Below, in pieces: positions 14,418 to 61,206 of a DNA stretch of 64,000 bases. How positions within the stretch are numbered: the first letter of the stretch is position 1; every line of letters begins with the position of its first letter. A program made the position numbers and the translations under genes. This DNA is from Rhina ancylostomus (lineage: Eukaryota): NCBI GenBank assembly GCA_030265395.1, contig JARFYF010000094.1, forward strand, positions 70,486,981 to 70,550,980, given 5' to 3'. Below the pieces are notes generated by a model, which was not told the DNA's origin, made no database searches, and saw only the letters and a list, made by a program, of their open reading frames with translations.

Positions 14418-14602
14418 CAAAAAAAAACTGCAGATGTTTGAATTCTGAAATAAAAATTGAAAAAGCTGGAAAAATTCAGCAGGTCAGTCTTTCTCCCATT
14501 TCTGATGAAGGGTCATCAACCTGAACCATTAATCTTTCTTCTCTTTATACTCCTTGACCTGCTGAGTATTTCCAACATTTTCTGTTTTTATTATAGATTT
14601 CC
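14418..14602. mobile_element. Penelope-derived inverted-repeat element (CUGAUGA subfamily)
   Basis: 'gctggaaaaattcagcaggtca' pairs with 'tgacctgctgagtatttccaac'; contains 'ctgatgaagggtcatcaacctgaacc' at 14502-14527. Confidence 0.8.
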
Positions 14603-14639
14603 ATTTTTCTTGGATGGGTCTGCTACTTTGTAGAGTGGC

Positions 14640-14843
14640 AAAACAAGAGACTGCGGATGCTGGAAACTGGAGCAAAATAAATATAAACTGTTGGAAGAAA
14701 TTAGGCAGCATCTGTGGAGGCAAAGAAATGGTTGACGTTTTGAGTCAAAATCTTGCATCAGGATTGGTGCAGGGTCTTGACTCAAAACATTGACCATCCC
14801 TGTGTCTCCATGGAGGCTGCCTGATCCACTGAGTTCTTCCAGC
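14640..14843. mobile_element. Penelope-derived inverted-repeat element (CUGAUGC subfamily)
   Basis: Long imperfect palindrome centred on 14761-14764: 'gttttgagtcaaaatcttgcatca-ggat-tggtgcagggtcttgactcaaaac'. Confidence 0.85.
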
Positions 14844-15388
14844 ATGACAACAACCTTTCCCTCAAAGTCAGCAAAACAAAAGAGGTGGGCAGTGCACATG
14901 CTCTTGTTTACATCAATGGTGCTGAGAATGTTGAGAGCTTCGAGTTCCTTGGAGTGAACATCGCCAATAGCCTGTCCTGGTCCAACCATGCTTCCTTGGT
15001 AAAGCAGCCAAGGTAATCAAAGACCCCACCCACCCTGAACATTCTCTCTTTTTCTCCCTCCCATCAGACAGAAGATACAAAAGCCTGAAAGCACATACCA
15101 CCAGGACCAAGGACAGCTTCTGTCCTGCAGTTGTAAGACTATTGAATGGTCTCTTAGTACAATACAATGGACTTTTAACATCACAATCTACCTCGTTATG
15201 GCCTTGCACCTTATTGTCTGCTTGTACTGCACTTTCTCTGTAATTGTAACACTTTATTCTGCATTCTGTTATTATTTTATCTTGTATGACCTCAATGCAC
15301 TGTTGTAATGGAATAATCTGAATGGATGACATGTAAAGTTTTTCACTGTACTTCAGTACATGTGACAATAATAAACCAATTTTCCAAT
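14844..15388 (+). mobile_element. Rex1/Babar LINE 3' portion with internal deletions
   Basis: DNNLSLKVSKTK..., FEFLGVNIANSLSWSNH, IKDPTHP...RRYKSLK..TRxKDSF, and tail 'tttcactgtacttcagtacatgtgacaataataaacc'. Confidence 0.9.
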
Positions 15389-26368: not shown

Positions 26369-26666
26369 GGGCAGGTATGGTAGTGTAGCAGTTAGCATAA
26401 CACTATCACAGCACCAGTGACCCAGGTTCAATTCCCACTGCTGTCTGAAAGGACTTTCTACATTCTCCTGTGTCTGTGTGGGTTTCCTCCAGGTGCTCCA
26501 GTTTCCTCCCACATTCCAAAGACATACAGGTTAGGAAGTTGTGGGCATGCTATGNNNNNNNNNNNNNGTGGCGACACTTGCAGGCTGTCCCCAGAACACT
26601 CTACGCAAAAGATGTATTTCACTGTGTTTCGATGTACATGTGACTAGTAAAGGTATCTTATCTTAT
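26369..26666 (+). mobile_element. Young V-SINE, full length
   Basis: tRNA-like head (B-box-like GGTTCAATTCC), V-domain 'gtgggtttcctccaggtgctccagtttcctcccacattccaaagac', and tail ending (tctta)n; closely similar to 3 other copies in the window. Confidence 0.92.
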
Positions 26667-28409
26667 CCCCACGACCATGATCAAAAACCCTTCCCACAAT
26701 CAGCACGGCTCAAACAAACATTTTGACATCACAATCTCTGCCATCCCCAACGCAGTGACTCTACACCAGCCTCAGTTCTACTTCTCCTGTCAGATGCTGC
26801 AGCCCAGGATCAGTGACCTACATGTTTTCCGTTGCTTTGTCAGAGGGTTAAAATGCAAGGCTGTTCTATTGCGAATGATACTTTGGGCCTTGTACACAAT
26901 GTTATGCTGTAACAGTGAGCTCTCAAGGAAAGCATGCATTAGCTTGCATACACTGCACATTTAAATTTGTCTTTCCTAGCACTGATTAATTTCTTGGTCA
27001 AAGTGGTATCAATAGAGGAAAGCACATGTTCTTTCTACAAGATATGGAAACATATTTAAACACAGAAGTTACTGTACACTAGAACATTTATGAGGAGTCT
27101 TTGGCATGTGAGCTAAATTGTTCTATTTTTTCATGTGCACTGTATACTGTATATGCAACACTATTATAAGACATATTTCCTTAACCCCACCTCCCAATCA
27201 CACTTGTTCCAAATCTATGTCAGTTCACAGTCTATCCACAGTTCTCCCCATGTTCTGTTCCAAATCCATCTTCTCCTTTGACATCCACTTTCTGCAGTTT
27301 CACTCTCCACATGCCACAGCTGGTCAATCAACTAACACCTCCAACTTCAGGTGACCTGATACTGCTGCTCTTCCTTGGGCACCAGCCTTCCCTCCTTCAA
27401 AACTGCTGCAGTCAACCTGCGCAAAAAAACAACCTCCGTCAGCCCATCTGTCCTCTCTCATTATCACTACATCTTTGAAGCTTATGTACACCCATTCTTG
27501 AGGTGTGAATGATGTTGGATGTTTATTTTGTCTGCCAATGTTTTTCTCAATCTATGGAACTGCAAGGTAATATTTGTAATGTATAAAACCCATTAAAAAT
27601 CACATTTTGTAAAAAGGTTATTAAATGAAATTAGCATTTGTGTCTTCATTAATGTTTATGCATGATGTCTAAAGTCCCTGGGTTTGGCCTTTTGCCCAGA
27701 ACTGTGAATGTGTGGCGGTGGCATGGGGACTGGTGAAAGGGATGATGATAGACTTTGCAAATGACCATGTACAATGTCCACAATTTCTCCAGGCAAGTAC
27801 TCAGATGTTTATCAAAATTACCTGGAAAAAAGCAAGAATACTAAAGAGAAATAGCTTGCCATATGCTTTTTAAAACAAAACAAAATAACTCCCTTTAAAT
27901 TTAACATAGGATGCTAATTGGGTCTTTATATAATTGTAAGTGTAATTAGAATTAGCATTGTAATTGTAAGACTGTGTCAAAAAAAGAGAGACACAAGAGA
28001 ATGAAGAACAGACAAAACCAGGGAGGGCAGTAGGAGGGGAATAGGGGCTGTGCAAAATATCAGATGCTGAATTAAACATGTCCATGAAAGTATGCACTTT
28101 TCTGTTTATCATTGTAAAAATGGTATTTCTGTTGGGGCTTGACAAAATCTAATATTGAAACATTTTCGTTAAACAGGGCTGACTAATCATGATGTATGTG
28201 CATGTTTATATGTAAGCTAATTACATTAATTGCCTTATTCCATTTTTAAACTTTCCAATTAATGACAGCTCTGGTAATTATGTAATCAGTCCACAGTAAG
28301 GAGCCATAGTACTAAATTTGGTTTTCCACTTAAAACTGCATTCTGAAGTGACAGTTTGCAAATGTGCTTGGGCTGCTGCACAACTCCGAGCAGTCTGAAA
28401 TAGAACAGA

Positions 28410-28640
28410 ATTAAAAATAGAAAATGCTGGCAACACTCAGCGGGTCAGGAATCATCTCTGGAAAGAGAAACAGAGTTAATATTTCAGGTCAAAGACCCTT
28501 CATCAGATTCTGATTCTGGCCAAGAGTCTTCGGCCTGAAACTTAACCCTGTTCCTCTTTCCATAGATCATGCCAGACCTGCTGAGGGTTTCACATATTTT
28601 CTTTTTTATTTCAGACTTGCAGCATCTGCATCTTCTTGAT
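28410..28640. mobile_element. Penelope-derived inverted-repeat element with hammerhead-like core
   Basis: Inverted arms; the minus strand of 28478-28506 reads CTGATGA AGGGTC TTT GACCT GAAA TATT. Confidence 0.85.
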
Positions 28641-28754: not shown

Positions 28755-28880
28755 TTCCTAATGCAGGGTTTCGACCTGAAAAATCGATAATTCCTTTCCC
28801 CCACAAATGCTGCTTGACCCGCTGAGTTCCTTCAGCAGATTGTTACAACTGATTCCAGCATTTGCAGTCTCTTGTGTGTC
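28755..28880 (+). mobile_element. Penelope-derived single arm (CUGAUGC subfamily)
   Basis: 'ctaatgcagggtttcgacctgaaaaatcgataattcctttcc...ccagcatttgcagtctcttgt'; matches 53129-53222 and the reverse complement of 14640-14760. Confidence 0.8.
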
Positions 28881-43799: not shown

Positions 43800-44540
43800 A
43801 CTTAAGGCTTTAAGACTGTAAAACTTGGATTGTTTTCTCTGGAGTGTTGGAGGCTGAGAGGAGATCTGATGGGCATTTATAAAATTATGAGAAGCATAGA
43901 TAGGGTAGATAGAGTCTTTTTCCCGGGCTGAAAATATCAAATAGTGGAGGACACAGCTTTAGGGTGAGAGGGGGAAAGTTTAAAGGAGATGTGCAGGGTG
44001 TTTTTTTTTACACACAGAGAGTAGTAGGTGCCTAGAATGTGCTACCAGGGTGGTATTGGAAGCAGACATGATAGTGGTGTTTAAGAGGCATTTGGACAGG
44101 CATATAAACATCCAGAGAATGGAGGGATATGAATCATGTGTAGGCAGATAGGTTTAGTTGAATTTAGTATCATGGTCAACACAGACTCATGGACTGAAGG
44201 GCCTGTTCCTGTGCCATACAGCACAGTAATGTAGCAGTTAGCGTAACGTTATTACAGCACCAGCGACCCAGGTTCAATTCCACCAGTGTATGTAAGGAGT
44301 TTGTACGTTCTCCCTGTGTCTGCGTGGGTTTCCTCCGCGTGCTCCGGTTTCCTCCCACGTTCCAAAGACGTACGGGTTAGGAGTTGTGGACATGCTATGT
44401 TGGTGCTGGAGGAGTGGCGGCACTTGCAGGCTTCCCCCAGCACATTCTCATTAACACAAAAAGATGCATTTCACTGTGTGTTTCGATGTACATATGACTA
44501 ATAAATAAATATCTGCTGTACTGTTAAGTTCTATGCTCTA
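43800..44540 (+). mobile_element. CR1 LINE 3' end, split by a V-SINE insertion
   Basis: LGLFSLEC.RLRGDL.GIYKIMR; the tail 'ggactgaagggcctgttcctgtgc' resumes after the SINE as 'gctgtactgttaagttctatgctctat'. Confidence 0.9.
44219..44514 (+). mobile_element. Young V-SINE
   Basis: Same head, V-domain and tail as the 26369, 46752 and 60903 copies; retains several CpGs. Confidence 0.92.
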
Positions 44541-46751: not shown

Positions 46752-47046
46752 TAAGATATCGTTATTATTCACATGTACATCGAAACACCTAGTGAAATGC
46801 ATCTTTTATGTAGAGTGTTCTGGGGGCAGCCCACAAGTGTTGCCATGCTTCCAGCAACAACATAGCATGCCTGCAACTTCCTACCCCATACGTCTTTGGA
46901 ATGTGGGAAGAAACCAGAGCACCCAGAGAAAACCCAGGCAGACACGGGAAGAACATACAAACTCCTTACAGACAGTGGCCAGAATTGAACCCTGGTTGCT
47001 GGCATTGTAATAGCATTATGCTAATGGCTACACTGCCATGCCTGCC
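46752..47046 (-). mobile_element. Young V-SINE, full length
   Basis: Reverse complement of the 26369/60903 family (its ORF RVQFWPLSVRSLYVLPVSAWV mirrors those copies). Confidence 0.92.
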
Positions 47047-53128: not shown

Positions 53129-53222
53129 TGTCCTGATGCAAGGATTCTACCTGAAACGTTGACAATTCCTTTCCTTTCACAGATGCTGTTTGACCCGCGG
53201 AGTTCCTCCAGCAGATAGTTGT
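53129..53222 (+). mobile_element. Penelope-derived single arm with hammerhead-like fold (CUGAUGC subfamily)
   Basis: TGTC-CTGATGC-A-AGG attcta CCT-GAAAC-GTT-GACA followed by the family body 'attcctttcc..cacagatgctg.ttgacccgc.gagttcctccagcag'. Confidence 0.8.
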
Positions 53223-55699: not shown

Positions 55700-56067
55700 G
55701 TGGTGTGATGCACAGCAGTGTGTGCTGCTGCCTCACAGCTCTGGAGACCCAGGTTCAATCCGAAGGTTCTCCCTCTGTAGAATTTGTATCTTCTTCCCCA
55801 TGATCCCATGCATTTCTTCTGAGTGCTCTGATTTCCTCCCACATCCCAAAAATGTACCAGTAAGTTAATTATCAATTGTAAGTTGCCCCTTAGTGTAGAA
55901 AAGTGAAAAATGCAAAAGAAATCAAAGAGGAATGGATGGGTACGTGAGAGAGAATAAGTTGCAGTAGTGAAATGAAATAAGGAGGGGGAAGTGGGACAGA
56001 TGGTGTTGCTCTGCCAGGAGCCAGCATAGACCCAATGGGCTGAAGAGCCTCCTTCTGTGTCATTGTA
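55700..56067 (+). mobile_element. Older V-SINE (HE1-like) with CR1-type tail, near full length
   Basis: Head 'gctgctgcctcacagctctggagacccaggttcaatcc', V-domain 'gtgctctgatttcctcccacatcccaaa', tail 'gacccaatgggctgaagagcctccttctgtgtc'. Confidence 0.88.
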
Positions 56068-60902: not shown

Positions 60903-61206
60903 GGGCAGACATGGTAGTGTAGTGGTTAGCGTAACACCAGTGACCCAGGTTCAATTCTGGCTGCTGTCTGTAAGGAGTTTGTATGTTCTCTCTGTGTTTG
61001 CGTGGGTTTCCTCCAAGTGCTCCGGTTTCCTCCAGGTGCTCCAGTTTCCTCCCACATTCCAAAGACGTACAGGTTAGGAAATTGTGAGCATGCTATGTTG
61101 GCATTGGAAGCATGGTGACACTTGAGGGCCGCCCCCAGAACATTCCAAGCAAAAGATGCATTTCTCTGTGTGTTTTGATGTACATGTGACTGATAAAGAT
61201 ATCTTA
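60903..61206 (+). mobile_element. Young V-SINE with a 19-bp internal duplication
   Basis: Family head, V-domain and tail; 'ggtttcctcca(a/g)gtgctcc' is duplicated at ~61005-61042. Confidence 0.92.

Follow-up and report, generated by a model that had tools for sequence, protein, structure and literature searches.

The Focal Copy and Its Neighbours

The window analysed here is a stretch of 64,000 nucleotides from Rhina ancylostomus (contig JARFYF010000094.1, positions 70,486,981 to 70,550,980 of the forward strand), with positions counted from its first letter. On its plus strand, the segment 53130-53220 is identical to the consensus of subfamily C1 at 80/91 positions, the top score among five subfamilies of a repeated element. 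Judged by its sequence, this segment is a 91-nt, decayed and 5'-truncated end of a Penelope-like pseudo-LTR of subfamily C1, in which the following features can be distinguished:

53130..53132, plus strand: 5' strand of stem I (GUC), pairing with GAC at 53161-53163
53133..53140, plus strand: core strand CUGAUG-C-A, where C53139 is the A9-equivalent and A53140 the conserved extra (9.1) position
53141..53152, plus strand: stem II, 3 bp, AGG (53141-53143) with CCU (53150-53152)
53153..53160, plus strand: GAAAC-GUU, comprising G12-A14 and a loopless palindromic stem III (ACGU at 53156-53159), with the predicted cut after 53160
53183..53220, plus strand: conserved tail opening with ATG, its frame open in all five consensuses

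All bases named in the original prediction are in place, namely TGTC at 53129-53132, CTGATGC at 53133-53139, A at 53140, AGG/CCT, GAAAC, GTT and GACA at 53161-53164. The hammerhead fold drawn from them holds for the motif itself: a descriptor requiring a stem I of at least 3 bp, A or C at core position 9, T or A at position 4, a 3-bp stem II and GAAACGT-H had no match in 200 Markov-resampled windows. In 1.06 Mb of genomic sequence sampled regardless of the motif, it was matched in full twice, the focal copy being one of the two. The fold does not hold for two of its pairs, which are private to the focal copy. Indeed, homology to the subfamily starts with 53130, and stem I of the consensus comprises GUC/GAC only, leaving U53129-A53164 as a private fourth pair, while the closing pair of stem II is A-U in place of the family's G10.1-C11.1. 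Stem II counts 3 bp (AGG/CCU) as compared to 4 bp (GGGU/ACCC) in the subfamily, the fourth pair having been lost, and the triplet GUU is a private change from GUC. Among the substitutions behind the private pair and triplet changes, two represent CpG decay, one being half of the A-U swap.

The copy carries 11 private substitutions, with a divergence of 12% that is similar to that of other copies, and it starts at -3 relative to C3, i.e., at the common 5' boundary of the family. The 36-nt motif folds no better than its shuffles (z = -0.54); in the predicted minimum-energy structure, the core is hidden within a different hairpin, and the predicted centroid displays stems I and II. No same-strand partner, as needed for a dimer, was detected near the focal copy. 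Taken alone, the focal copy is ordinary: it is an inert, neutrally decaying stub. The comparison with Rfam hammerhead models that had been proposed as a check gave no match in the window (E<=5) or at 16 better-kept loci (E<=10); since eight of the latter have the canonical A and were also unmatched, the Rfam models do not cover the architecture of this Penelope-like element (PLE) hammerhead.

The tail at 53183..53220 is the segment most conserved between subfamilies when consensuses are compared and is likely the start of the element's open reading frame, by analogy with Poseidon of the anole as described in the available text of PMC11167929. The core ATG in A1, A2, C1 and C2 opens a 21-codon frame ending at a stop; in A3 (e.g., the minus-strand copy at window position 28506), loop II is one base longer, bringing the core ATG (A6-U7-G8) in frame with the ATG of the tail.

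Further copies of the family lie in the same window:

28756..28863, plus strand: sister C1 copy with G5>A in its core CTAATGC, both stem I and stem III disrupted and ACGU destroyed
14656..14766, minus strand: C2 copy, core CTGATGC at 14761-14755, G12 and stem II lost
14764..14845, plus strand: inverted C2 partner of the preceding copy, with C at position 9 (14770)
28407..28506, minus strand: copy of A3, the more diverged subfamily, with the canonical core CUGAUGA-A
14495..14604, plus strand: canonical-core A3 copy (14502+)

Two of these had been put forward as sister copies sharing the C. They do share it; the minus-strand core had been placed one base off its position at 14761-14755, and both sisters are broken elsewhere in the motif. 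Head-to-head inverted pairs of element ends occur at 14700-14825 (C2) and 28405-28607 (A3), the junction being the 5' edge of the motif. The window also contains copies of an unrelated tRNA-like SINE (26380-26660, 44226-44510, 46752-47002, 55707-55870 and 60935-61206), a family that we take to resemble the HE1/HER1 type.

Subfamilies and Core Variants

A tail-only profile retrieved 226 copies from 1.06 Mb of genomic sequence, 141 of which cover the core. Among these 141, 56 have U4 together with A9, 35 have C at position 9 (about a quarter) and 34 have A at position 4. With subfamily classes assigned from flanking plus motif sequence, C at position 9 is found in 17/17 readable copies of C1 and 16/17 of C2, as against 0/9 of A1, 0/35 of A2 and 2/60 of A3. 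The proposal that this C is a feature of an amplified subfamily and not a private change is thus confirmed (33/34 readable C1 and C2 copies versus 2/104 others). Clustering of the first 81 copies on the sequence downstream of the cut site alone again placed C in 12/12 and 12/12 members of C1 and C2. Genome-wide, the exact pattern with any base at position 9 has 616 matches; C or T at that position accounts for 161 exact matches, with C in 91/100 among the matches listed. All subfamilies have A at position 9.1, where another base occurs in 25 versus 616 exact matches.

A different core, CAGAUGA, has 174 exact matches and is present in 31/35 A2 copies. A2, which makes up 63/226 sampled copies and is the largest of the younger subfamilies, has an intact stem I of 5 bp and includes the endonuclease-linked copies L057, L271 and L291 (A2 loci L262-L291). 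This sister subfamily has fixed another core change, U4A.

When the subfamilies are set against the minimal hammerhead of PLEs, most of the motif is regular. G12 A13 A14 A15.1 with U16.1 and H17 are present as GAAAC-GUU in the focal copy and GAAAC-GUC in the consensuses, G10.1-C11.1 closes stem II in all subfamily consensuses, and the palindromic 15.2-16.2 segment is ACGU in the focal copy and in the A1, A2, C1 and C2 consensuses. An extra nucleotide between 9 and 10.1 is also present, as an A in all subfamilies; this A had first been taken as unusual and is in fact the described conserved 9/10.1 bulge of PLE hammerheads. The core C3 U4 G5 A6 N7 G8 A9 is absent from C1 and C2 if the next A is counted as the bulge, and can be read in them only if the register is shifted. 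Helix I of 4-5 bp is also lacking in both, as stem I has 5 bp in A1 and A2 versus 3 bp in C1, and C2 is likewise without pairs 4-5. The canonical sister subfamilies vary at the permissive positions N7, H17 and loop II. A minor subfamily, A4 (L058, L153, L005), has A at N7 and U at H17, both permissive hammerhead positions.

Rough estimates amount to 46,000-131,000 copies per variant lineage, extrapolated from the 1.06 Mb, which was not randomly chosen. Neither a young nor an intact C-type element turned up, as the best other copy matches the well-kept L013 at 88% identity and frameshifts are present in the ORFs that were examined. A metagenome scan for the C variant gave 0 matches, and the 13 pattern matches in viral contigs were all (13/13) devoid of a hammerhead stem I (0-2 bp). 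Same-strand pairs closer than 500 nt numbered 7 among the 141 copies, and in 5 of these pairs the two members belong to different subfamilies. A non-LTR retrozyme, consisting of tandem units each with a hammerhead, was rejected on the basis of these counts. At L002:1400-1540, four tandem head-to-tail copies of the ~35-nt C-type motif only were observed, where dimers are possible in principle.

Parent Element

When loci were chosen by the endonuclease end and upstream UTR DNA only, 29 distinct loci were obtained, 20 with a readable motif, and position 9 read C in 18 of these, with a single T and a single A. The C-type motif therein lies at the terminal repeat downstream of RT-endonuclease remnants, which is the location that defines the minimal hammerheads of PLEs. 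In particular, L146 and L147 are RT-EN remnants of ~2 kb ending in the C1 motif, and RT-like motifs are present upstream in L130 and L132. The names RT and GIY-YIG endonuclease are those that we presume for these remnants from motifs in their translations; a Pfam comparison of 7 short decayed ORF fragments gave no relevant match. A Cys-rich linker ahead of the endonuclease, recognized by visual inspection of degenerate translations (L119, L132, L046), resembles CX2-5CxxC of the Neptune/Nematis type. Comparison of this linker with the description in the available text of PMC8557442 makes the parent element likely a Penelope-like element of the Neptune clade. The assignment of the motif as a Penelope-derived minimal type I hammerhead is supported by this element linkage and by the canonical sister subfamilies. 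Copies linked to an endonuclease are found several times each in C1, A1 and A2, twice in C2 and once in A3, and the subfamilies therefore represent lineages of autonomous elements.

Formation of the Copies

The 5' ends of the copies pile up at the edge of the motif and not at its cut site. Indeed, 77/226 fall at -9..+2, of which 51 at -6..-2 before C3, while 9/226 fall around the cut site (+24..+32). The pile-up is family-wide (e.g., window positions 53130, 28756 and 14766) and equal in canonical and variant subfamilies, and 5' ends at the cut site are found in 1/52 copies of variant versus 4/111 of canonical subfamilies (P=1). As copies tend to start at the 5' edge of the motif, the templates were uncut. 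This comparison shows the dispensability of cleavage for copying, not a loss of activity. The short-copy fraction is 45/115 in variant versus 32/111 in canonical subfamilies (P=0.12).

The 5'-end peak sits on TCAGTCC, which we assume to fit the initiator consensus. The same TCAGTCC follows a polypyrimidine tract ending in CAG, resembling a splice acceptor; a search upstream of the common 5' boundary revealed no spliced exon shared between copies. An inverted partner accompanies 26/74 boundary copies among those listed. In Drosophila, Penelope is described as having an internal Inr/DPE promoter (PMC2377424, available text). The majority of the 3' ends detected fall between +95 and +105, at the limit of the reference used, and are compatible with internal priming in the tail, as the available text describes for anole Poseidon (PMC11167929).

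Three raw RNA runs, whose species may differ, gave 12,764, 15,995 and 28,344 reads on a C1 copy, on both strands. Among these reads there was neither a pile-up of molecule ends nor a depth step at the cut site, in libraries of a kind that loses such ends. Among public sequencing runs, no RNA run containing the sequence was listed; 9 rows in 4 studies shared 0.10-0.30 of its words.

Relationships and Rates of Change

Outside the motif, a tree of majority consensuses, each based on 8-52 copies, has the form (A3,(A1,(A2,(C1,C2)))), in which 11-12 informative sites group A2 with the C subfamilies and 5, versus 2 and 0, group C1 with C2. This tree implies a single origin of C and an independent origin of U4A in the sister lineage. 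A2 and C2 differ at 9/90 UTR, 1/58 tail and 2/11 core sites, the count of two core changes being low (P=0.18 under the tail rate). Between A1 and A3, 15/59 tail sites and 0/11 core sites have changed (P=0.04 under the tail rate), and the differences within the motif are located at H17, in loop II and in stem I, the latter as a C-G/U-A swap. C1 and C2 differ at 17/89 UTR versus 2/34 motif sites, where one of the motif differences probably reflects a CpG-related artefact in the consensus; with ~1/33 changed, the remaining motif is conserved relative to the UTR rate (P=0.008) and unremarkable at the tail rate (P=0.48).

The check for covariation proposed with the original prediction gave no signal above shuffles at the level of single copies. 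The alignment comprised 79 of the 81 copies of the first sample, leaving out one at a locus edge and one misanchored; pairing reached 64.4% versus 64.1% in shuffles, with a score of 0.184 versus 0.192, and slid controls were all lower (21-46% paired). This outcome is as expected, because the copies are neutrally decaying and CpG-eroded. One swap at the subfamily level was seen in stem I, with C-G in 26 and U-A in 19 copies; it occurs in A3 and is absent within the C lineages.

Competing Explanations

In the available text of PMC11300833, A9 comes after an abrupt bend of the backbone from G8 to A9 and engages G12, the general base, in a sheared pair. Replacing A9 should impair catalysis unless the following A takes over. 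Different explanations may account for a C at this position in so many copies. That the hammerhead resemblance arose by chance, in a repeat without ribozyme ancestry, might be suggested by the lack of Rfam matches and by copy-level covariation at the level of shuffles, but the motif is located at the end of an RT-EN element, the usual place of PLE hammerheads, the descriptor was silent in the 200 resampled windows, and the canonical sisters change at N7, H17 and loop II and by a C-G/U-A swap in stem I. Such a coincidence has a negligible probability and was rejected, as the canonical sister subfamilies refute it. That the focal copy should itself act as a ribozyme, whether still active or exapted, is also very improbable. 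Although it is one of the two full descriptor matches in 1.06 Mb, and the G-C>A-U change at 10.1/11.1 preserves a pair, it is 12% diverged like the others, half of that change stems from CpG decay, no partner on the same strand was detected in its vicinity and its minimum-energy fold is predicted to bury the core.

A more serious alternative, unlikely in our judgement yet worth retaining, is that the register is shifted, so that the second A acts as A9, C bulges between G8 and A9, and the C subfamilies keep a dimeric, protein-assisted ribozyme. It is given this weight because the second A is invariant, with variation only at the first position, and the remaining motif is conserved between C1 and C2. 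The abrupt bend from G8 to A9 (PMC11300833) and the insertions tolerated at protruding backbone, e.g., U13a (PMC3088659, both as available), speak in the same direction, and folding predictions do not favour a Watson-Crick pairing of C9 with G12, by which the latter would be blocked (P<=0.02 in the consensuses, 0.08 in the focal copy). However, the parallel U4A subfamily and the loss of stem-I pairs 4-5 are left unexplained, no natural example was found among the 13 viral-contig matches or in the literature searched, and in C1 the C is predicted to give rise to a CCUG/CAGG hairpin that competes with the fold (P=0.22, as compared to 0.002 for A; 0.009 in C2). Should the shift apply, a doubtful prospect, the extra nucleotide of PLE hammerheads could sit on either side of A9, and CUGANGA descriptors would miss about half of the hammerheads of such genomes (those with C or U4A). 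Alternatively, the change may be a true A9C with the A still bulged, leaving a slow residual cleavage that would be sufficient in vivo only with the protein of the element. Natural variants such as A6C, U4C and U15.1-A16.1 have low activity but are active (PMC3088659), and canonical PLE hammerheads are themselves slow (PMC4209133) and protein-assisted in the anole (PMC11167929), according to the available texts. On the other hand, single changes in the core U-turn are of low activity in pairwise mutagenesis, where the available text does not single out A9 (PMC9901934), and the weak 3-bp stem I would be an additional penalty, which makes residual activity of this kind quite unlikely.

The explanation towards which we lean, and which we consider somewhat probable, is that cleavage is relaxed or dispensable in the (A2,(C1,C2)) clade, as this clade has two independent core changes, a weak stem I and uncut templates. 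Of the two options left by the original prediction, a tolerated non-canonical core or spread after the loss of cleavage, the evidence thus leans to spread without a need for cleavage. Transcription would start at about -4/-5 before C3, reverse transcription would start in the tail ~100 nt downstream, and the uncut RNA would give rise to copies of ~110 nt. Core changes impairing the G12-A9 sheared pair or the U-turn would then not be purged in the (A2,(C1,C2)) clade, because copying uses uncut RNA, and the hairpin and palindrome have stayed conserved, perhaps for a non-catalytic role, such as promoter or protein binding. As far as the available texts go, ribozyme mutants of anole Poseidon still insert in vitro, no RNA-seq ends are found at its cut site, uncut RNA is its main template and cleavage requires protein (PMC11167929), while Naiads proliferate without canonical hammerheads (PMC8557442). 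Against relaxation count the slower change of the rest of the motif relative to the UTR between C1 and C2, the A at 9.1, which remains beside G10.1 and able to pair with G12, the similar share of cut-site ends in variant and canonical subfamilies, and the low number of core changes. Folding predictions do not discriminate: the active double-hammerhead is placed at a much higher energy than the most stable dimer, whether the sequence is canonical or variant. A C-to-A revertant of C1 with downstream linker is predicted to misfold (stem II probability 0.014 versus 0.448).

Comparison with Known Systems

The closest relatives are the minimal hammerheads of metazoan PLEs (Cervera and de la Pena 2014, PMC4209133), which, in the available text, likewise lie in the pseudo-LTR of an RT-GIY-YIG element, lack loop III, have a palindromic 15.2-16.2 segment, an extra 9/10.1 nucleotide and a consensus G10.1-C11.1, and occur mostly as solo copies and inverted pairs. 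The core variant reported there is a U3-A8 covariation. The family described here differs by the C at the A9-equivalent in two subfamilies, by U4A in a third and by a 3-bp stem I in C1 and C2. The green anole Poseidon PAc (Frangieh et al. 2024, PMC11167929, as available) shares the hammerhead at the pLTR/ORF junction, copies ending in the tail ~100 nt downstream, uncut templates and the lack of RNA ends at the cut site. The PAc ribozyme works, with the assistance of protein, whereas here the linker appears CX2-5CxxC-like and no intact copy was found. With the EN+ PLEs of the Neptune clade (Craig et al. 2021, PMC8557442), the present family has in common the apparent order of RT, Zn-finger-like linker and C-terminal endonuclease, as well as 5'-truncated and inverted terminal copies. 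Canonical hammerheads are called universal in non-Naiad/Chlamys PLEs in the available part of that paper, whereas here U4 and A9 occur together in 56/141 copies only.

Rare changes at normally fixed core positions are also known as natural core variants (Perreault et al. 2011, PMC3088659); those in the available text are single prokaryotic or phage loci, while here they characterize retroelement subfamilies of an estimated ~100,000 copies. "A9C" is absent from the available text of that paper (PMC3088659). Among the literature searched, as far as available, no natural description was found of an A9C hammerhead core or of a nucleotide between G8 and A9, and nothing relevant to Penelope ribozymes of cartilaginous fish was found among the matches listed. 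Small hammerhead variants of PLEs are reportedly the subject of work by Lünse et al. in 2017. No prior position-9 variant was found, though Lünse 2017, the Cervera supplement or Perreault Fig. 5 could already show such a variant.

Significance

These data bear on the question of whether Penelope elements need their hammerheads. The genome offers a natural experiment, in which closely related autonomous lineages of similar age have a canonical, a C9 or an A4 core. Should the variants prove dead, they would be evidence, at the level of the genome, that these elements can spread without cleavage; should they cut, the rule for the hammerhead core would widen.
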